Notes: generated from the sequence alone by a model not told the origin. A DNA stretch of 64,000 nt from a virus (IMGVR_UViG_3300023435_000009), one strand, 5' to 3'; shown: positions 2,238-56,571, counted from the stretch's first letter. Numbers and translations are program-made.

Positions 2238-5200
2238 GTGCCGATGGCGACGTCTGTGGCAAAAAAATCCCCGTACCAGTTGCTCCAGAAGATTCGCACC
2301 CGGACGGATCTGAAGCTCAAACCTCTGAAACATCTGAAGCCTACTTTCACGGACTTCAATGGGCAGGAACGGCCCTTAGTTGTCCGGTATTATCAAATAC
2401 AAGGAATCGCACATCTTGTTGCTATGAGGCAATTCCTGCTTGGTGACGACACGGGCTTGGGCAAGTGTAAAACGCTAGACTCCAGGGTGCTCACGAACAG
2501 GGGGTTGTTAGAGTTGGGTGCTCTTGCTCCTAAGGGGGACCTTCTGCCGGACAGCTTTTACCCGTTGGACCAACCCACAAGAGTTTGGACTGGACGTGCA
2601 TGGGCACCCGTGTCAAAGTTCTATTGCGGGGGGATCAAACCAATCAAACGGATTAAAACCCGTCGAGGATATGAAACAACAGGTTCGCTAGTACATCCGG
2701 TGTGGGTCCGGCATCCTGATGGGACGGAGGGTTTCGTTGAGATGAGGCACCTTCAGGTAGGGGACCAGTGCTGTTTAGACAGGTCCTCTTCTGAGTTCCC
2801 TTCATCTGAACCGTCAGTGCCAGTACCGACAGCAGATCAGTTTACTTCAAACACGACAGTCTATACTGTACCTGATAGGCTCTCACCTGAACTGGCCTGT
2901 TTGTTAGCCTACATAGTAGCTGAGGGGTGGACTAACTCTAGAATGGGTTTCAATGTATCGCAGAATAGGATGTTAAATCCAGAAACTCATGAGCACATCC
3001 GACAGCTTTGCCGGGATGTTCTGGGTTGGGACGGCAATGGGGGGGCCAAGAACAAGGATAGGGAGATTCAAATTAGTAGTGTTTATTTGCGGGCATACCT
3101 GGAGGGGGTAGGGGTTGTACAGGGTCGGTCGGCAGTAAAACAGGTGCCCTGGCCGATCTTTCAGGGAACCCAAAGTTCCGTGTGTGCCTTCCTCAGAGCC
3201 TATTTTGACAGTGAGGGTTTTGTTTCAAAGGAGGGGGTCATTGAAGTTAGTAGTGCTTCTCAAAAGTTACTTCAAGATGTCCAACTCCTCCTTCTCCGTT
3301 TCGGAATTCTAGCCTCCCGGTGTCCAAAACGAGTCAAAGGTTACGAGCACACCTATTGGCGATTGACTCTCTGTGGGAAGGATGCCCAATTGTTTGGGAC
3401 CGCCATTGGATTCCTGACCCCTCGAAAACAAGCAGCGTTGAAAGGGCAGTCGGATGTTTCCCCCAACGTCAATCTTGATGTTGTTCCCCATGCTCGGAAG
3501 CTGATAGAGGAACTCAAGCAAGAGATCCTAGCTCGTGTGACTGTGTCAGGAAGCAATGCCTCTCGACGGGGCAGTGGGATCAGACAGTTTGGAGTGTCTT
3601 TCGAAAAAACCCTGAACAACATACGCAATGGGGGACGGAGTCCTACTTACGAATTCATGGGCCGACTGTTGGAGGTGTCCCGCCAGGTGGGTGCCAAGAC
3701 CACCAAAGCGCATCATCAAACAAAGGCAGTTTGTGACCGGCATCTGTTTTACGACCCGGTGGAAACCATTGAGGAAGACGTTCAGATGGTGGCGGACATT
3801 GCTGTAGATGATCCGAGTCACGCCTTTGTGGCAGATGGCTTTATTAATCACAACACAATAGAGGCAATAGGTGCTCTTTGTTACCTTTGGGGGTCAGACC
3901 CTAATCTCAAGTCAATGGTGTTAACTACGAAGAGTTCCGCCCCACAGTGGGTCCGGGAGTTCTCAAAGTTCACCACGGGAATCAAGGTTGTCTTGTGTCA
4001 GGGCACCCCGGCGCAACGGGAAAAGGCTCGGAAGACGTTCGAGGAGTCCGATGGTCCCACCGTGATCGTGATGGGTTACCGGAGTGCCTTACAGGATTTT
4101 CGGCACATCCAGGATTGGGAGAAATACATCCTAATTGCGGACGAGTGTTTTGACTATTTCACCCCAATACAGTTGGCGGATGGGACCACTGAACTGATAG
4201 GTAGAGTCGTCACCAAAAGGATGCCAGTGACTGTTCTTTCTGAGAACCCCGACACAGGGGAGGTAGAACCGAAACGAGTTGTAGCTTGGCATCAAGTTCC
4301 CATCTGCAAGGGAAAACGGAAAGCTCTCGTCAAATTACAATTTCGGTTTTCCAAAAGTGTTCGGGTAACCCCAAACCATGAAGTGTATATTCCTGGGGGG
4401 CACACGAGATCAGTACAGCACTTAAGGGTGGGTCATTCCGTTAGACATCTCTGTTGTAAGACACCCACGGAGTTCCAGAAGCAGGTGATTTTAGGTGGCC
4501 TGTTAGGTGACGCTAGTATTTCATTCCCGAAAAGAAAATTGTGGGGTGTGGTTTTCGTTCAGTCAGCGTCTAGAGGAAGGTATCTGCGATTTAAAAGAGA
4601 TGTGCTTTCCTCATTAGGGGTTTCTAAGATTGATGACACCACCGCTGGGTATCAGCCCAAAACAGGAGTAAAAACTCCTGTTGAGCGCTTTCGTGTCAAT
4701 GGGAATGCAGCAGTCACATCTCTCCTGGTACAAGGTCGGGTTTGGAGAGAGGGAAAGAAACGAGTTACCAAGGATTGGTTGACTCATGTTGGTCCTTTGG
4801 GTTTAGCTGTTTGGTATGCTGATGACGGAAGTATTCAGACCTATCTGTGTAAGGACGGACAGACGACCCACACGATCACCTTACACACACAAGGTTTTTC
4901 TAGGGACGAACAGGAACTTCTGGCTGGGTGGTTATATTGGCGATGGGGTGTGAAGGCTGAGATTAAAACAACAAAGGAACGCTCTGACCGTAAGTCGGGG
5001 ATTCGTAAAAGTTACCCCTATCTGTATCTGCCAAAAGACGAGGCACAGAAATTCTTGGATCTACTACCCGGTTCCTTACCTGATGTGGAGTACAAGTTCC
5101 CAGGAAAAAGTCCTTTACAGTGGGCAGAAACGGAATTAACTCCAACTAAGAGTGTCGTGACTGACTGGATTACAGCCAAAGAAAGTTGGTCTCCTAAAAA

Positions 5201-48390: not shown

Positions 48391-49812
48391 ATGAAGTGTC
48401 GCATCTTCCGACTTCACAAGGATACCAATCAGTCCAAGATCGATAAGTTGGAAGCCCTACACAAAGCATACGTCAAGTACGTCCGCATTTGCGTACAAAC
48501 GATGCTTGACCAGCAGGTCTATAATCTCCCGAAAGCCGCCAAACAAACGTTCTTCCCACGGGCCACCAACCTTACGTCCCAAATCGAAAAGATCGCACGA
48601 GACCACGCTATCCAAATTGTGAGCGCTTGGGCCAAAGCCACTTACGCCCGCAAGTTGAAACCGACTATCACCAACCTCAAGCACGAGGGTACCCTCACCG
48701 AACAGGACGCCAAAGCACTCTGTGTCATCGGATTAAAAGCCATCAGTAAGCCCTGGAAGTTTATCACCCAAGACCATCTCGACGCCTACCACACCCTGTT
48801 GGACACCTACGGAGGTAATAAGCCTATCGTAAGGGACAACCTGCCCATGCGGTTGTCGGAGATGACGGCTCGGTTGGAGGACGCATCTAAAGCCCCTCTC
48901 GGGGACTTCTGGTTGAGGGTGTCTTCGTTAGAAGCTCGTAAGTCCGTCTGGTTGCCTCTCGTTGGGAATCTTTACATTCAACAAGCTGATCAGGTCAGCA
49001 AAGGGATCTCAGCCCGCAAAACCAAGCGAGGCTTTTGGCGCTTTGAGGCGGTCAGTAAGGCTGAATGGGTTGTTCCCGAAGCACAGGAAGGTTGGCCTAA
49101 GTTGGGCGTTGACGTTGGTCTGAACGTCCTTGCAGCTACATCAGATGGAGTGATTTACGGTGAACACGTCAAACCTAAGTTCGACAAACTCTACGCTCGT
49201 GTCAGAAATCTTCGAGCAAATCGCCAACGGCAGGATTTGAAGGATAACAGCCCAAAGTTGGATCACCTTGAGAGCAAATTGAGTGGGTTGATCAAGACAG
49301 AGACGGGTCGTGTGGTAAACACCCTTATCGTTCGTCATCCCGAGACGGTGTTCGTGGTCGAAGATCTCGATCTTCGAGGTTGTAGGGGTCAAAAAAGGTT
49401 TGCTTACAGGGCGTTACAGATCAACTTGGAAAGGAAAGCTCCAACAAAGAAAGTGAACCCTGCTTACACGTCGCAGGAGTGTCCTTCTTGTGGTTATGTT
49501 CATCGAGGAAACCGAAGTTCAATAAGGTTCCGTTGCCGCTCGTGCGGCAGGAAAGCTCATGCTGATTGGGTAGGAAGCGCTGGTGTGCTCAGACGTTCTG
49601 GAGACGAACACATCAAAGCTAATGATCACCCACGAGGCGTAAAACGAGTGCTAAGAGAGCGATTCCGTATTAAGCGGACCAGTTCCTTGGGATTCGGACG
49701 GCAAGAGCAACCGTCATCCGAGCCCTTACCGTTGGGCCGGGAGCTTACTACCGAGGCACTTGGGTTACCAAGGATCGGCACAGCCTCAAACTTGATGCCT
49801 GTTACATTCTAG
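48391..49812 (+). CDS. tnpB: TnpB RNA-guided nuclease (IS200/IS605 family, no TnpA)
   Basis: LGVDVG, VVEDL, NPAYTSQECPSCG..CRSCG, HADW. Upstream hairpin CTGCTT-N8-AAGCAG at 48361-48380. Confidence 0.9.
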   Translation: MKCRIFRLHKDTNQSKIDKLEALHKAYVKYVRICVQTMLDQQVYNLPKAAKQTFFPRATNLTSQIEKIARDHAIQIVSAWAKATYARKLKPTITNLKHEGTLTEQDAKALCVIGLKAISKPWKFITQDHLDAYHTLLDTYGGNKPIVRDNLPMRLSEMTARLEDASKAPLGDFWLRVSSLEARKSVWLPLVGNLYIQQADQVSKGISARKTKRGFWRFEAVSKAEWVVPEAQEGWPKLGVDVGLNVLAATSDGVIYGEHVKPKFDKLYARVRNLRANRQRQDLKDNSPKLDHLESKLSGLIKTETGRVVNTLIVRHPETVFVVEDLDLRGCRGQKRFAYRALQINLERKAPTKKVNPAYTSQECPSCGYVHRGNRSSIRFRCRSCGRKAHADWVGSAGVLRRSGDEHIKANDHPRGVKRVLRERFRIKRTSSLGFGRQEQPSSEPLPLGRELTTEALGLPRIGTASNLMPVTF

Positions 49813-50099: not shown

Positions 50100-50447
50100 A
50101 TGAAAAGGATTCTGATTGCACTGTTGACACTGATCTTGGCGGCAGCATTCGTCTTGTCCTGTAACACCACGGAAGAGAATGCCGAGGACGTGACTGTTGC
50201 CGAGGACACCCTGGCAGACCTCATCGAGGGCGACGTGCCCCTGACGGACGGAACCGTCGAGACTGTCGCAGCCCTGGACACCGTCCCCACCGAAGACACC
50301 CTTCTGGAAGAGATGCCCACCCCGGTGGACGTGATCCAGGACGAGCACACCCCAATGGACGCCGTTGGGGATGCGCCTCCGATGTACGACAACCTGGAGG
50401 AAACGCACACCCCGGTGGACGTACTCCCCGAGGTCGCATCCAACTAG
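50100..50447 (+). CDS. Acidic putative lipoprotein with HTPxD repeats
   Basis: Signal peptide ending VLSC; PTPVDV/HTPMDA/HTPVDV. Confidence 0.7.
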   Translation: MKRILIALLTLILAAAFVLSCNTTEENAEDVTVAEDTLADLIEGDVPLTDGTVETVAALDTVPTEDTLLEEMPTPVDVIQDEHTPMDAVGDAPPMYDNLEETHTPVDVLPEVASN

Positions 50448-51128
50448 CCCACCAGTTTGTCCAACTCACCCCTCAGATACTTCACGGCTGAGATACGTTT
50501 CCCCAGTCGATGATCTGTGACCTGATCCCTCTGGAGAGCGATAGTTCGTACCTTGTCGGACATCATGCCTCTCCCCACCTGAGCTTTCCGTTGCTGGTTA
50601 CGTTGGTCCAACTGAGAGGATGCCTCTGCCTCCTGTAATCGGGCAGACAGGATTGCCTTCGCCGTTTGTAAATTCCGGTACTGTGATCGTTCGTTCTCTA
50701 CTCGGACAACCAGACCCGTGGGTTTGTGTGTGAGGATTACTGCAGACGAGGTTTTATTCCGATGTTGGCCTCCAGGACCTGAGCCACGGGTCGCCTGCCA
50801 CTCCAGGTCTCGCTCGTTCAGTTTGACGGTCTGCTCGTCCACGAGAGAGAGTATAGCGATAGTAACTGTTGACGTGTGTGTCCTGCCCCGTTTCTCCGTG
50901 GGGGGTACCCGCTGCCATCTCATACCACCGGCTTCATGCCGAAAAGCCCTTACAGCCCCCTTCCCGACCGCCTGGAAGGCAAGGAAACCGGGACGGTCCT
51001 CCAGCAACACCACGTCAAAGGGACCTCCTCTGTGCCCATCGCACATAAACACCGTACTGTTCATGAACCAATAAGGAGGCATCCCGACCTCCCTCACCTG
51101 CTCTTATTTCTATTATGACAGTTTCCAT
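50444..51128 (-). CDS. Peptide chain release factor-like protein (no domain 1, PxT + GGQ) made by +1 programmed frameshift, 227 aa
   Basis: Frame 0 (51128-51015): METVIIEIRAGEGGRDASLL..RRSL-TGA. The +1 frame continues DVVLLEDRPG..QRVPPTEKRGRTHTS..GPGGQHRNK..RSQ. Confidence 0.88.
51014..51029 (-). promoter_or_regulatory. prfB-type +1 frameshift cassette AGGAGG-TCC-CTT-TGA-C
   Basis: Internal SD, 3-nt spacer and CUU-UGA-C, as in bacterial RF2 genes. Confidence 0.88.
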
Positions 51129-52243
51129 TAGTTTGACTCCTTCTCTAGCCCTAGTCGTCGGCAGGCCCACCCAGCCCATGCCGGGGTCATTTGAAAATGT
51201 TCCGCAATGCGTTTTTGTGTCCAGCCTTGCCCCCTCAGTTGACGGAGTTCCTTTTCGACTTGATCAATTTTTGCGGGAGCTTTACCCCTCACCTGAAGCT
51301 TGTATCGGAAGCAATCAGGACAAAAAGGTTCCGTTAGGGCCACCAGTTCCAGTCGGTGTTTTCGTTGGCTTAGGACCAGTCTAGGATTCCCTCTGTGGCT
51401 CTGCACACGAGGAGACCAACCATAAAGTAGCCGCAGTCTAGAGGCTAGAAACTCGACATCCTCCCAGGTGAAACCGTCCGTGCAAAAGGCTACCCCATAC
51501 CCTGTATTAATCAGCCCACCATCACCCCAGTACCAATGCGCTAACGCTCGGGGGGTTAGCCGGATGTCCAGAGGAATAATTTTTTTACCCTTTGGGTACC
51601 AACGGAGGCGCTGGTCCGTAAATGTTTTGTATTTCAGTGTCCTTAACTGTAAACTCGGGTTACCTCGGAGAACCTGTTTCCCAATGTGACCGATTCTTGC
51701 CGGACGTGGTTTTATGTTGCTTTTAACACCCCCGGCCCTAAGTTCCCTTTGAACCTGTTCAAGCCATTCCTTTCGGTCTGCTCTTTGTGCTAGTCCCAGA
51801 CGACCCTCACTGCCACCTGTTTTTTCCAACCAGGCGTCACCAAGAAGTAAACCATCGATTAATTCAAGGGACTCCTCTGTGGTAGGGAAGGTCTTGTGAC
51901 AAATCAGAGTATGTGCCTCCTGTACCCCCCGTAGAGGAACACCAGCCCGCTCTAAACGGATACGCACCCAGTTGCGACTGAAACCCGTTGCCTTCGCTAA
52001 CTCAGAGACAGAACGTCCTGACAGATACTCAGCGGGAAGGCTTTCCGTTGTTTTTGCATCTCGTTTGCCTTGAGCGATTGTTGCAGCCTCACTGTGGGTG
52101 CGGAAAGAAACATCTGCTTTAGCCAACCGTCGATGAATCACAGGTGCTGAAACACCTAGTGCCTTAGCAATGTGCAACTCCAGTTCCCCCGCTTGGTACC
52201 GACGAACAATGTCTGCGTCATCCAACGTGAGTCTTTTGGGCAT
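51128..52243 (-). CDS. Free-standing LAGLIDADG homing endonuclease with HTH segments
   Basis: LIDGLLLGDAW and LAHWYWGDGG. Likely start MPKRLT after GAGGAGG; TAATG overlap with the release factor gene. Confidence 0.85.
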   Translation of the reverse strand: MPKRLTLDDADIVRRYQAGELELHIAKALGVSAPVIHRRLAKADVSFRTHSEAATIAQGKRDAKTTESLPAEYLSGRSVSELAKATGFSRNWVRIRLERAGVPLRGVQEAHTLICHKTFPTTEESLELIDGLLLGDAWLEKTGGSEGRLGLAQRADRKEWLEQVQRELRAGGVKSNIKPRPARIGHIGKQVLRGNPSLQLRTLKYKTFTDQRLRWYPKGKKIIPLDIRLTPRALAHWYWGDGGLINTGYGVAFCTDGFTWEDVEFLASRLRLLYGWSPRVQSHRGNPRLVLSQRKHRLELVALTEPFCPDCFRYKLQVRGKAPAKIDQVEKELRQLRGQGWTQKRIAEHFQMTPAWAGWACRRLGLEKESN

Positions 52244-52299
52244 AACGTCCTCCTCTGACAGCCCCACTCTACACGACGATCTCTGACCGGCAAGGACTT

Positions 52300-52608
52300 T
52301 CACACCCACTTGTTCCGGGGGACAAAGATCAGGGTGACGCTGTCGTCCTCCCAATCCACACCCTGGCATCGTGCCCATGTCCTAAACTCTCGTGTTTCTC
52401 GTCGCCACCGATAGATCCGGTCACGGCACCCGATGTCACAGATGCCCCGGCTCATACGAGGACGACCGAAAGTGCGCTTGCGGCAGTGGCAGGCTAACGA
52501 TGGGGTCTTGGCGTACCGATGTGGCTCCACATCCTCGGGAGCGCTGTAGATTTCAAGACGTGAACGGATGACATTTGCTGTCCTCTGGCGGCGGGTTCCA
52601 CGGTCCAT
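52300..52608 (-). CDS. Hypothetical basic Cys-containing protein
   Basis: GGAGGAGG RBS; CHC..GRP..C. Confidence 0.55.
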   Translation of the reverse strand: MDRGTRRQRTANVIRSRLEIYSAPEDVEPHRYAKTPSLACHCRKRTFGRPRMSRGICDIGCRDRIYRWRRETREFRTWARCQGVDWEDDSVTLIFVPRNKWV

Positions 52609-52701: not shown

Positions 52702-52926
52702 TCAGGCTTGTCCAGTCGTTTTCGACTTAGGACAGGTCCATCGGCCATGGGCGTCCTTGGTCAGGGTCTTCGCTCTGCGGGCGTTGAACAGGACCGCTCC
52801 CGTGGAGCGCTTGTTGGTGTAGCCCACGCTGGCGCACAGGGACACGACCTGCTTCCCGAGGATCGGTCCGTGGTGTGCAACGATACGCTGAACGAGTTCG
52901 AGTGGTGTTTTGTGTTCCATTTTCAC
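52702..52926 (-). CDS. Small hypothetical protein (wHTH-like)
   Basis: GTGA-coupled to the upstream HA gene. Confidence 0.45.
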   Translation of the reverse strand: MKMEHKTPLELVQRIVAHHGPILGKQVVSLCASVGYTNKRSTGAVLFNARRAKTLTKDAHGRWTCPKSKTTGQA

Positions 52927-53258
52927 TCCTTGGTGTCCCAGGTGAATCCGAGAGCGTTCAACTGGGCGATCCTTTCCGGGGTCATCCTGACCTTGTGCTG
53001 CCCCTCCTGGACCGTTCCGACACGGCTTCCCAGCTTGTAGCCGTCCGGGCTGACGTAGTTGTGGGGCACGGCACAGTGGCCGTGCGCCCGCTTGAACGCC
53101 GTCAGGTGGGAAAGGAAGTTGGGGAGCCAGGGCTTCTCGGATGTCCTGTTCGTCCTCCCAAGGCGTTGCACCACACAGTGACCGTGTGCCTTTCGGTAGG
53201 CCGTCAGGCGACTCAGGAACTCGGGGAACCAGGGCGTCTCAGGTGTCTTGTTCTTCAT
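52923..53258 (-). CDS. HA (helicase-associated) domain protein, 1 truncated + 1 full repeat
   Basis: WLPNFL..L..FKRAHGHCAVP..Y..DGYKLG..LNALGFTWD. Confidence 0.85.
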   Translation of the reverse strand: MKNKTPETPWFPEFLSRLTAYRKAHGHCVVQRLGRTNRTSEKPWLPNFLSHLTAFKRAHGHCAVPHNYVSPDGYKLGSRVGTVQEGQHKVRMTPERIAQLNALGFTWDTKE

Positions 53259-53281
53259 GTTCGTCCTCCTTGTACTGGAGA

Positions 53282-53309
53282 CTACTCAGGGGTGGGCTTG
53301 GATGATCCC
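53282..53309 (-). promoter_or_regulatory. Bipartite motif GGGATCATC-N13-GAGTAG overlapping a gene end
   Basis: Exact spacing; the TAG of the motif is the stop codon. Confidence 0.7.
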
Positions 53310-54001
53310 CTGAGACTCCAGACAAAACCCAGAGCGTCCAGTTCGGTGACCATTTCGGGAGTCACCTTGACCTGACCCCCACCATTACGGGATGAACGAA
53401 TACTGTTTGTTCGAACACCGAGTTGGTAGCCATCGGGGCATTTGTAGGATTGCGCCGGAGAATAGTCCCCGAATTTGGCATGGTACTCCTTCAGCCTCTT
53501 CAGGAATTGGGGAAACCACTCGTTCCCATTCCAGACGAACCCAAGAAGGTCCAGCGCCGCTATCATCTCTGAGGTAGGGCTTACACGTTTCTTGTCCTTT
53601 TTTCTTGTCCGGACATCAGATACCCTCATCCCAAGGGCGTAACCATCGGGACATTTGTAGGACTTTGGGACACGGCAGTGCCCGTGGGTCTTTTTGTACT
53701 CCTTCATGTGGGACAGGAATTCAGGGAACCATTCGCACACAACCCAAACGAACTTCAGGGCATCAAGTTCAGCGATCATTTCGGGAAGGTGTCTGGACTT
53801 GTTATGCCGGACACTACTTACACGGGCACCCAACCTGTACCCGTCGTCACACAGGTAGGACTGCGGCACTCGGCAATGTCCATGACATTTCTGATAGGCT
53901 TTGATTTCCCCCAGGAACACATCGAACCACGCTGGCCAAGGTTTTATCCGCCCAAGCTCAGTGAGGCGTTTACGGAATTTGTTGCTGTTACTCCTGCCCA
54001 C
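53282..54001 (-). CDS. HA domain protein, 3 repeats
   Basis: Repeated WF..FL..Y...HGHC.VP..Y.C.DGY.LG..L..LGFVW. Confidence 0.88.
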   Translation of the reverse strand: MGRSNSNKFRKRLTELGRIKPWPAWFDVFLGEIKAYQKCHGHCRVPQSYLCDDGYRLGARVSSVRHNKSRHLPEMIAELDALKFVWVVCEWFPEFLSHMKEYKKTHGHCRVPKSYKCPDGYALGMRVSDVRTRKKDKKRVSPTSEMIAALDLLGFVWNGNEWFPQFLKRLKEYHAKFGDYSPAQSYKCPDGYQLGVRTNSIRSSRNGGGQVKVTPEMVTELDALGFVWSLRGSSKPTPE

Positions 54002-54011
54002 GGACGACCTC

Positions 54012-54665
54012 CTACCAGCCGTAGGAAAGGCGGAGGAGTTGCATCGGAATGACTCGGCTGCGGTACGTAGTGAACGCTTGCTTCGGCACCTGGACGCCGC
54101 AGTGTTTGTGGACGATGGCCTCGAACTGCCGCTTCGCCTTTTCCAAGGGAGCGCTGGCGTTGCCCCGGAGGGCTAGGTTGATGACCAGGAGGAATTGTCC
54201 CAGGCGCTGCTGTTGGGACTGGGCAAAGGCGAACATCGGAAGGAGGATGCTCTCCAGGTGGAGGTTGCTGGGACTGCGAAACCCGTCGAACACGAGGACG
54301 CCGATGTTGCGGAGGGTCGGGTCGTCCAGGTCCAGGAGGAGCCGGGACATGTCGCCGCAACGCCACTCGGTGCGGTCGTCGTTGTAGTGGGTGGCGTTGC
54401 GGTCAAGGATCCCCTGGTTGGTGTTGACGCCGATGTATCGGCCATGGTCGGGGGCAAGGACGCCTTCGTCCAGGAGGAGGCCACAGGTAGCGTCAGGGGC
54501 ATCACCGCACAACTCCATCCAGTCCCTGGTCAGGTGCCCGTCGTAGAAGAGGTTCGTGGGGCACTCTGGGTCACGGAGGAGGTCGAGGGTCGTGGTCCTG
54601 GTCTTGTGCTTCTCCGGGTGTTGTTCAGGGGGGAAGGAATGGATGTCAGCCTGCGGGGTGGTCAT
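54012..54665 (-). CDS. Class I SAM-methyltransferase-like fold protein (divergent)
   Basis: WMELCGD, YIGVNTN, WRCGDM and VLVFDG occur in Rossmann motif order. Confidence 0.45.
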   Translation of the reverse strand: MTTPQADIHSFPPEQHPEKHKTRTTTLDLLRDPECPTNLFYDGHLTRDWMELCGDAPDATCGLLLDEGVLAPDHGRYIGVNTNQGILDRNATHYNDDRTEWRCGDMSRLLLDLDDPTLRNIGVLVFDGFRSPSNLHLESILLPMFAFAQSQQQRLGQFLLVINLALRGNASAPLEKAKRQFEAIVHKHCGVQVPKQAFTTYRSRVIPMQLLRLSYGW

Positions 54666-55547
54666 GGGGTGTTGTCCTTCTTCTGATTGCGGAGATCCCA
54701 AACGAAACCGAGGACATCAATCTGGTTGATCTGAGTGGGTGTCAGTTTACGGCCATCCGCCGGGGCAGACGTATTTTTGGGGGGGTGTCTGTCCCCCGTG
54801 TGCGTCCATGTACTCTCTGAGGTGACAAAGGAACTCCGGCCACCACTGCCCTTTCGTGGTGGCGTCCCAGACAAAGCCGAGAGCACCGAGTTGGCTCCGC
54901 ATAGTGGGGGTCAAGACCCGGTGATTTCGTACCCCCGCTGTGTGATGGCCTAGTTTGTAGCCATCATCGCATACATAGGTGCCACGCACCTGACAACGGC
55001 CATGCACGGCCTTGTACGCCTTCAAATGTTCCAGGAACTCCGGGAACCACTCTGTCGGGACATCCCACAGGAAACCTAGTTGCTCAAGTTTCTCCGCCCT
55101 GCTCGGGGTGATTTGGACGCCCACTTTGTGCCTTTTGCCTGTCCGAACAGCATTCACTTTTGGGCCAAGTCTATACCCGTCCTGACATCTGTACTGGGTG
55201 GGCACCTGACAATGGCCGTACTCGGCTTTATAGTCCTTCAGACGCCGGAGGAACTCGTCGAACCAACAGGGGATCTCCCAAAGGAAACCGAGTTGATCCA
55301 GTACAGGCACCATTGAGGGAGTCACTGTCCGAACACTTTTCCCTTGTCGAAACCTGCGAATGTCCCCGACCCTGTTCCCCAATGTGTACCCGTCAGTACA
55401 CTTGTAAAGCTGCGGCACCTTACAGTCCCCGTGTTCTTCCTTGTACGCCTTCAGATGTGCCAGGAACACATCGAACCACGCTGGCCAAGGTTTCATCAGC
55501 CCAAGCTTGGCGAGACGTTCACGGAATTTGTTGTTCCTTTTGCCCAC
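54662..55547 (-). CDS. HA domain protein, 4 repeats, last repeat frameshifted near 54762-54765
   Basis: ORF 54747-55547 stops at YVCPGGWP. Another frame continues PADGRKLTPTQINQIDVLGFVWD to an ATGA overlap at 54662. Confidence 0.75.
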
Positions 55548-55566
55548 GGACGACCTCCTACCAAGA

Positions 55567-55594
55567 CTACTCTGTAGGTGGCCGAGATGATCCC
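55567..55594 (-). promoter_or_regulatory. Bipartite motif GGGATCATC-N13-GAGTAG overlapping a gene end
   Basis: Exact spacing; the TAG is the stop codon. Confidence 0.7.
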
Positions 55595-56571
55595 GTTATT
55601 CGAACATCCCACATAAAGTCGAGGGCAGCTAGATCAGCAACCATGGGCAGGGTGATTTTCCTCCGACCTGTTGCGTCCCTACGGCCCTCTCTAACGCTGT
55701 TCGTCATGGCCCCTAACTTGTACCCATCCCGACAGCAATATCCCCTGGGCACCATGCTGTCGCCGTGCTCCCGGTAGAACTTCGTCAGGTGACTGAGGTA
55801 CTTGGGGAACCATTTGCCCGTCAGGTTCCGGTCCCGCTCGAACCCGAGGGCATCCAGTTTTAAGACCATCTCTGGGGTGACCTGGAGGGGCATCGACTCA
55901 TCGCTGCCCTCCTCCAACCGGCGGATGCTCGTTCGGATGCGTTGGACCCTCAGGCCTAACTTGTGTCCATCCGCACATTCAAATTTGACAGGGATCGAAC
56001 AGTTCCCATGTTCCGCCTTGTATTCACGCAAACGCTGCACAAAGTCGGGGAACCATTCCGAGGGTTCCCATTCAAATCCAAGTGCGTCCAGGTCAGCAAT
56101 TATCTCATCCGTGAGTTGCCGGAACGCCTTCTTATTCAGTGCCCTTGCCCGTTTCGCTGCCCGAACAGCGGCGGCAGTTTTACCCAGGGTGTATCCATCG
56201 GGGCACTCATAAGGAACGGGTGGGTTTTGGCCGTCGTGAGCGGTCATATATTCCACCAGACGAACCCGGAACTTTTGGAACCAGCGATCTTTTGGAGCCA
56301 GCCAGTCAAAACCGATGGCATCGAGGGCAGTACTCATCTCCTCCGTCAACACACGGTTTGATGGGCGCTTCCTTGCGGAACGGATTCGCCCCACCTTGTT
56401 CCCTAAGCGGTACCCGTCTTCACACTTGTAGTTGTGGGGCACTTCACAATCCCCGTGCTCCGCCTTGTACGTCTGAAGGTGGGAGTGGAACTCATCGAAC
56501 CACGCTGGCCAAGGTTTCATCCGCCCAAGCTCAACGAGCCGCAGTCTGAATTTGTTGCTCCTCCTACGCAC
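55567..56571 (-). CDS. HA domain protein, 4 repeats
   Basis: Four HA units; leader SNKFRLRLVELG. Confidence 0.88.
   Translation of the reverse strand: MRRRSNKFRLRLVELGRMKPWPAWFDEFHSHLQTYKAEHGDCEVPHNYKCEDGYRLGNKVGRIRSARKRPSNRVLTEEMSTALDAIGFDWLAPKDRWFQKFRVRLVEYMTAHDGQNPPVPYECPDGYTLGKTAAAVRAAKRARALNKKAFRQLTDEIIADLDALGFEWEPSEWFPDFVQRLREYKAEHGNCSIPVKFECADGHKLGLRVQRIRTSIRRLEEGSDESMPLQVTPEMVLKLDALGFERDRNLTGKWFPKYLSHLTKFYREHGDSMVPRGYCCRDGYKLGAMTNSVREGRRDATGRRKITLPMVADLAALDFMWDVRITGSSRPPTE

Follow-up and report, generated by a model that had tools for sequence, protein, structure and literature searches.

A prfB-like +1 frameshift cassette in the predicted gene for a short RF1-type release factor of a virus

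The bacterial prfB gene is the textbook case of a gene that gauges the activity of its own product on the ribosome. Pairing between an internal Shine-Dalgarno (SD) sequence and 16S rRNA, together with slow termination at UGA-C, lets the peptidyl-tRNALeu shift from CUU to UUU, and the fraction of shifted ribosomes drops as the cognate release factor gains activity. To our knowledge, this has so far been the sole example of a frameshift that senses a release factor. The locus described here lies on the minus strand of a 64,000-nt stretch (hereafter, the window) of the virus record IMGVR_UViG_3300023435_000009, and raises the question of whether the same device can control a different release-factor gene and, if so, what it would sense. 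The record is a 125,741-bp IMG/VR entry from salt-lake metagenomes; because its CheckV completeness is 24%, it probably represents only part of a phage genome of very large size. We consider it likely that the gene encodes an RF1-type factor without domain 1, produced through a prfB-like +1 slip at CUU-UGA-C, and that its output rises when termination by the host RF2 is slow.

The features of the locus and of the related loci mentioned below are listed in Table 1. The gene starts with an ATG whose ribosome-binding site falls within the 3' end of the upstream homing-endonuclease gene, and its first frame is closed by UGA directly after the Leu codon CUU. A single four-base step at CTT-T joins this part to the +1 frame and gives a product of 227 aa, with SLDVVLLEDRPGFLAFQAVGK as the predicted peptide spanning the frame junction. 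The frame-0 part corresponds to the start of release-factor domain 2 (a strand and helix alpha5) and, in alignments with solved structures, matches RF1 residues ~105-140, whereas the +1-frame part supplies the remainder of domain 2/4 and the GGQ domain 3. A reading of the sequence alone had proposed a hidden release-factor gene split by a frame change and equipped with the full prfB-type architecture. Direct reading reproduced its details exactly (the ATG, the cassette, the +1 frame, QRVPPTE, GPGGQ, and the length of 227 aa); the SD, the 3-nt spacer, CUU, UGA, and the following C, a base of weak termination, are each present, and the alignment with RF1 is colinear across the junction. No significant stimulatory RNA structure was found on the 3' side of the site (80-nt fold, z = -1.41; 17 of 200 shuffles equal), and a scan for promoters and terminators around the gene gave nothing exceeding shuffled sequences.

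Table 1. Positions of features in the window and, where a genome or locus handle is given, in related sequences.
Feature	Position	Strand	Details
Putative ribosome-binding site AAGGAG	51137..51142	-	8 nt 5' of ATG 51128; read from sequence
Frame-0 part, Met1-Leu37	51018..51128	-	ATG 51128-51126; 37 codons; METVIIEIRAGEGGRDASLLVHEQYGVYVRWAQRRSL
GGRD codons	51092-51081	-	in frame-0 part
Internal SD-like AGGAGG, codons (C)AG AGG AGG	51024..51029	-	presumed +1-slip stimulator; 3-nt spacer TCC separates AGGAGG (51029-51024) from CTT (51020-51018)
Shift site CTT TGA C	51014..51020	-	P-site Leu codon CUU; frame-0 stop UGA 51017-51015; C 51014
+1-frame part, Asp38-Gly227 and stop	50444..51016	-	GAC 51016 first; 190 open codons; TAG 50446-50444
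PPT codons (RF1-type PxT)	50897..50905	-	in QRVPPTEKRGRTHTST; QRVPPTE read in +1 frame
Catalytic GGQ codons	50765..50773	-	in GSGPGGQ; RF-1 domain E 2.8e-29
Homing endonuclease	51128-52378	-	416 aa; free-standing, LAGLIDADG_2
115-aa frame	50100-50447	+	lipoprotein-like signal (…AAAFVLSC)
TnpB/OrfB_IS605-type protein	48391-49812	+	Cas12f1-like TNB domain
Four HA-domain genes (PF03457)	52923-56571	-	52923-53258; 53282-54001; 54747-55547; 55567-56571
Suppressor tRNA locus, G002	202917-202992
Suppressor tRNA locus, G006	302460-302537
Suppressor tRNA loci, G008	228801-228949; 288775-288850
CTT TGA C with upstream GAGG, L038	~3115-3135
Short continuous factor with SPF, L044	3001-3690
Apparently divided factor gene, L055	3001-3301; 5424-5591
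Factor gene with apparent second frame change, L041	3001-3635

It might be supposed that the extra T interrupts an ordinary gene, either because the gene is a pseudogene or because of a sequencing or assembly error, since a single-base frame break is the commonest type of error and gene callers give only the downstream frame. We regard this as extremely improbable, based on the following observations: (i) the stretch occurs in 24 sequencing runs (no RNA run among them), and contigs independently assembled from three other runs span the shift site with 0 gaps, so that the suspicion of an erroneous T finds no indel at the site to rest on; (ii) a variant with 96% identity, from a run labelled marine, differs by 30 substitutions, none of them close to the site, and has no indel; (iii) both halves of the gene remain open and conserved; and (iv) the identical break, codon, and heptamer recur in 37 diverged loci, isolate genomes included. 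The same split in these loci and in isolate genomes, together with the indel-free assemblies, excludes an error or a pseudogene for practical purposes.

Relatives were sought in viral contigs, in a set with one genome per prokaryotic species, and among the GenBank phages. In 37 distinct loci, with 39-59% protein identity, a +1 shift is found at the equivalent alignment position, and tblastn places residues 1-37 of these relatives one frame back from the remainder of the gene. CTT precedes the stop in all 37 of them; the stop itself is TGA in 30 and TAG in seven, and it is followed by C in 28. GGAGG with the exact 3-nt spacer is perfect in 22 of the 37 loci and retains at least four of its five bases in 25, and because the other 12 have no good SD, the stimulator is not universal. 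About two protein clusters also imply a UAA gate, which, with the seven TAG loci, means that the codon at the gate differs between members of the family. In other words, the cassette is kept among the homologues, whereas the sensing of UGA, which the sequence-only reading had placed at the center, does not extend to the seven CUU-UAG relatives and the few with an apparent UAA gate. The theme common to the family would seem to be a premature stop that senses the efficiency of termination, rather than UGA sensing as such.

Among phages, the frameshifted gene is carried by, for example, the huge LR745208.1 (485 kb) and by complete genomes of 191, 309, and 395 kb; among isolates with a sequenced genome, it is carried by Archangium gephyra SDU49, whose chromosome is complete, and by Pyxidicoccus fallax DSM 14698. 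The closest cellular homologue, with 57% identity, is in a Bradymonadia metagenome-assembled genome and is frameshifted too, which may hint at the host group. Of the 120 nearest clusters in a large protein collection, 53 are continuous, 44 have the N-terminus GG.F[D/E/S], which is the +1-frame translation of the cassette DNA, and 23 begin 3' of the junction. It should be mentioned that, because gene callers give the downstream frame only, these genes are systematically truncated in the databases. At the homologous position, no cassette is seen in 13 continuous loci of the family, and among 71 bacterial prfA genes GGAGG is found in none and CTTT in one.

Which class of factor does the joined frame encode? 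In Pfam, the product matches positions 101-194 of the 194 of the PCRF model (its C-terminal half) and then a complete RF-1 (GGQ) domain. Among the NCBIfam models, it ranks RF1 (213 and 208 bits) above RF2 (141), PrfH (87), and ArfB (40), each score being below the curated cut-off of its own model. For the RF1 equivalogs TIGR00019 and NF001859, the scores are 207.6 and 212.8 bits against cut-offs of 423.25 and 400, with a match that covers only model positions 105-343 and not the full length. RF2 (TIGR00020) reaches 141.4 bits against 370, with PPT standing in place of SPF, and for ArfB only residues 98-133 match, with 40 bits against a cut-off of 100, in a protein that has a codon-recognition domain. 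The best matches among solved structures are the RF1 proteins of Thermotoga and Thermus (E 3e-49 to 1e-44; PDB 2fvo, E 2.9e-49), and the alignment is unbroken over residues 30-45, which span the frame junction. An AlphaFold model built with 20 family sequences has a mean pLDDT of 88.8, and of 96-97 near the junction, where the helix of residues 15-34 leads directly into a strand of residues 38-45. In Foldseek, this model aligns with ribosome-bound RF1 at a TM of 0.92 (rmsd 2.0 Å), with RF2 complexes at 0.81-0.89, and with PrfH (9mor) at 0.65.

The residues that read the codon agree with this ranking. Gln72, Pro75, Thr77, His84, and Thr85 align with Q181, P184, T186, H193, and T194 of Thermus thermophilus RF1, so that the PxT motif (P75-P76-T77), the third-base readers Q72 and T85, and the catalytic G119-G120-Q121 are all there, which bears out the RF1-type assignment first made from PxT. 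Two marks in the codon-reading regions are specific to the family by comparison with 12 bacterial RF1 proteins: PPT takes the place of P[E/A/V/Q/D/S]T, and GGxD that of GGxE, the latter being a change from Glu to Asp at the tip of helix alpha5. The proposed lack of domain 1 also holds, given the PCRF coverage of 101-194 only. The possibility that domain 1 is encoded elsewhere, or was severed by the homing endonuclease, was considered and rejected: no match to the N-terminal part of PCRF was found in the whole 125.7-kb record, the frame is closed 17 codons 5' of the ATG, and the relatives begin at the same Met. By its sequence, then, the gene is a class-I release factor of the RF1 type that consists of domains 2/4 and 3, without domain 1, and the factor most likely reads UAA and UAG.

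How would such a gene be expressed? By analogy with prfB, we infer slippage, its dependence on RF2, and the specificity of the factor. After 37 codons, ribosomes that initiate at ATG 51128 would have CUU as the P-site codon and UGA-C at the A site, while AGGAGG, separated from CUU by three bases, is able to pair with the anti-Shine-Dalgarno sequence of 16S rRNA. The peptidyl-tRNALeu would slip from CUU onto UUU, and reading of the +1 frame would then yield the complete factor; on ribosomes where a release factor recognizes the UGA before the slip, the product would be no more than the 37-aa fragment. Slow termination at UGA, which depends on the activity of the host RF2, would lead to more of the phage factor. 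When RF2 is limiting, therefore, more RF1-type factor would be produced and would take over termination at UAA and UAG, in what would be a cross-regulatory loop. About half of the long frames of the phage terminate in UAA or UAG. Because the UGA gate is read by RF2 and the reader residues of the factor are of the RF1 type, cross-regulation is the most economical reading; since an RF1-type factor would be unable to feed back on a UGA gate, the logic of this cross-regulation is a conjecture. In the CUU-UAG relatives, the same device would be autoregulatory.

One objection to cross-regulation is that the short factor may have a broadened specificity and read UGA in addition to UAG and UAA, in which case the gate would sense the activity of its own product as in prfB. 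The varying gate codon (TGA in 30 loci, TAG in seven, and UAA in about two clusters) would be explained most easily by a factor that reads all of them; the PPT and GGxD substitutions are absent from the 12 bacterial RF1 proteins compared, and SPT occurs in the relative L015 and PPN in several others. RF1-type PxT and third-base readers, however, are known from structures to exclude G at the second position of the stop codon, and Pro75, Thr77, Gln72, and Thr85 are all of this type. Moreover, the tripeptide variant shows no link to the gate codon, and both sequence and fold are nearer to RF1 than to RF2. True autoregulation therefore appears unlikely to us: the suggestion that the PPT factor itself reads UGA finds no support in the decoding residues, and on the assumption of RF1-like specificity the gate stop is not one that the encoded factor reads. 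A different view is that the frameshift is a fixed attenuator, which keeps a factor that does harm in excess at a low and near-constant level, with no biologically important sensing. Overproduction of release factors is indeed harmful (PMC12421855), and the many continuous relatives without the cassette, whose states are interleaved on the tree, suggest that gating is dispensable. Yet a low output would be set more simply by a weak start signal, the prfB layout, including the C after the stop (28 of 37), makes the output depend on release-factor activity, and it is always a stop codon that stands at the gate, as also in the sister group with its in-frame UGA-C/A. We judge a mere attenuator improbable on these grounds.

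The sequence-only reading had also raised a likeness to PrfH and a role in rescue, by which a PrfH-like or ArfB-like factor would free damaged or non-stop ribosomes without terminating at stop codons. Such a role would suit the missing domain 1, as in PrfH, the RtcB encoded in the record, and the tmRNA genes of the complete relatives, one of which lies 1 kb from the factor gene. The likeness does not hold up under comparison: the product scores 86.7 bits with the PrfH model TIGR03072, against a cut-off of 166.65 and against 213 bits for RF1, its fold has a TM of 0.65 to PrfH and 0.92 to RF1, and all the residues with which RF1 reads stop codons are kept, whereas the C-terminal tail of the ArfB type is missing. 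A linkage of the RtcB-PrfH type was also looked for and dismissed, because RtcB is ~50 kb distant and is absent from three complete phages with the frameshifted gene; no neighbor is conserved across the family. Taken together, these observations make a rescue factor very unlikely, and an RF1-type terminator under cross-regulation by UGA decoding is retained as the preferred reading.

The stop codons of the record itself bear on what such a factor could do. Its frames of at least 200 aa end in TGA (47%), TAG (35%, an uncommonly large share), and TAA (18%), and the 35% TAG and 18% TAA together are an unusually high demand on RF1-type activity. A recoded genetic code was considered and rejected, as TGA, TAG, and TAA all act as stops here and in four complete relatives, with a short in-frame continuation after each; a crude comparison of ORF coverage under codes 11, 4, and 15 in 6-kb loci did not discriminate among them. 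No suppressor tRNA was found in the record, which represents ~24% of the genome; tRNA-Ile is the only tRNA given by name, and a later count gave two tRNAs. Amber-suppressor tRNAs (anticodon CUA) are present in three of the four complete short-factor phages (Table 1), where TAG is still a genome-wide stop, and G008 adds an ochre-type tRNA (UUA). A tmRNA is encoded in all four of these phages (G002, G006, G007, and G008), and it is in G007 that it lies ~1 kb from the factor gene.

The neighborhood of the gene varies. In an all-against-all comparison of flanking frames, only the factor itself is common to the whole family. Directly upstream in the window is the gene for the homing endonuclease, which also has several helix-turn-helix domains and is a neighbor in no relative; its TAA overlaps the ATG of the release-factor gene by one base (TAATG), so that translational coupling may occur. 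Farther upstream are four paralogous genes made of repeated HA domains. On the opposite strand, the 115-aa frame, with an acidic repetitive body and no family match, runs toward the release-factor gene and extends over its stop codon, and the gene for the TnpB-type protein is also convergent with it. The locus in Archangium contains a glycosyltransferase, a weak TIR-like match, and a beta-propeller protein, with no phage marks within 3 kb.

Maximum-likelihood analysis places the short factors in a single group, which a long, well-supported stem (SH-aLRT 95) separates from bacterial RF1. Frameshifted genes with TGA, frameshifted genes with TAG, and continuous genes are interleaved within this group, and at least five changes of the TGA state are required when well-supported branches alone are counted. 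This interleaving implies that the cassette is old in the family and that it was repeatedly lost or had its stop exchanged. One well-supported subgroup has, instead of the frameshift, an in-frame TGA ~10 codons downstream in the context GGY-TGA-C/A. It was seen at about codon 43-47 in L012, L014, L028, L029, L032, and L043; in addition, L037 has an in-frame TGA at the frameshift position, and L093 has two TGAs. In the complete 345-kb phage that carries L032, TGA otherwise serves as a normal stop, and the in-frame TGA of this sister group therefore looks like a read-through gate specific to the gene.

Several members of the family are unusual in other ways. In L038, CTT TGA C with an upstream GAGG is situated ~10 codons downstream, where the sister genes have their in-frame TGA. 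L044, on the most divergent branch, encodes a short, continuous, domain-1-less factor with SPF, and so short factors of the RF2 type also exist in viral contigs. Odd tripeptides occur in frameshifted relatives, namely SPT in L015 (gate CTT-TAG) and APN in L035, and the gene of the 485-kb phage LR745208.1 (L084) has the shortened loop QRTSNGR; among the relatives, no association was seen between the variants PPT or PPN and the gate codon. The factor gene of L055 appears to break off near residue 105 and to resume ~2.1 kb farther on, the intervening stretch being perhaps an intron or a mobile insert, and L041 has an apparent second frame change near residues 150-160.

It is tempting to combine these elements into one scheme, in which huge phages and some Myxococcota possess a self-contained termination-capacity circuit: the factor would be unlocked by a +1 slip (CUU-UGA/UAG/UAA) or by UGA read-through, its PPT/GGxD specificity might include UGA, and with the suppressor tRNAs and tmRNA it would retune the stops during infection. 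We offer this as a speculation whose chances, taken as a whole, are rather low. What the locus offers apart from such a scheme is a prfB-like cassette that, at a non-homologous position, would gate a family of RF1-type factors in UGA, UAG, and probably UAA versions. The family can be regarded as a natural experiment on the origin of release-factor-sensing frameshift sites, whether by convergence or by transfer of a cassette, and as a testable case in which the synthesis of one release factor may be set by the activity of the other. It also offers a way into the question of how termination is managed by huge phages during infection, and it has value for annotation, as the frameshifted genes for short factors are truncated in databases. 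It should thus be of interest to the fields of recoding and of phage translation.

With what known systems, then, can the gene be compared? PrfH (RF-H) has lost the canonical reading of stop codons and is found in an operon with RtcB. Domain 1 is missing and the GGQ domain is kept in both PrfH and the phage factor, but the latter keeps the decoding residues of RF1, fits the structure of PrfH badly, and does not have RtcB as a neighbor. Bacterial RF1 (prfA; TIGR00019 and NF001859) is the best match in both sequence and structure; the two share the PxT motif, Gln and Thr as third-base readers, GGQ, and the fold in domains 2-4. The phage factor differs from it in being without the ~105-residue domain 1, in scoring about half of the cut-off (208-213 against 400-423 bits), in belonging to a separate clade, and in carrying Pro as the central residue of PxT and Asp where alpha5 of RF1 has Glu.

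Release factors have been reported from phages before. Huge phages encode RF1 and RF2 (PMC7162821, in which no frameshift is mentioned), and RF1 is found in the TGA-recoded Jade phages and RF2 in the TAG-recoded Lak/Agate phages, as part of a code-change module and again with no mention of a frameshift (bioRxiv 10.1101/2021.08.26.457843). These are likewise phage-borne class-I factors able to shift the balance of termination among the stops during infection, but those phages are recoded, whereas in this record and its four complete relatives each of the three stop codons acts as a stop. In the full texts covered, which come from outside the subscription journals, no frameshift is described in a release-factor gene that is of a phage or of the RF1 type.

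The closest parallel to the shift itself remains prfB, whose consensus is AGGGGG-N3-CTTTGA-C (PMC12421855). The phage site matches it element by element, with an SD-like run inside the gene, a spacer of 3 nt, CUU as the P-site codon, an in-frame stop, a C, and the rest of a class-I factor in the +1 frame. prfB genes that do not have the stop do not have the SD and the slippery run either (PMC12421855), and the same pattern is seen in the continuous members of the phage family, which are without stop, SD, or slippery run. In a 2025 survey of 12,753 genomes, prfA had no such frameshift and UAG was never the gate codon in prfB (PMC12421855), unlike in some relatives of the phage gene, where UAG serves as the gate. 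The phage gene is of the RF1 type (PPT) and not RF2 (SPF), and its site at codon 37 in domain 2 is not homologous in position to the prfB site at codon 25-26 of domain 1. prfB is a core bacterial gene, whereas the carriers of the short factor are huge phages and Myxococcota. Finally, prfB is autoregulatory, whereas the UGA gate of the phage gene should not be read by the RF1-type factor behind it and would make for cross-regulation. Judged on sequence, this is prfB-type recoding in another gene, with what would be another regulatory logic.
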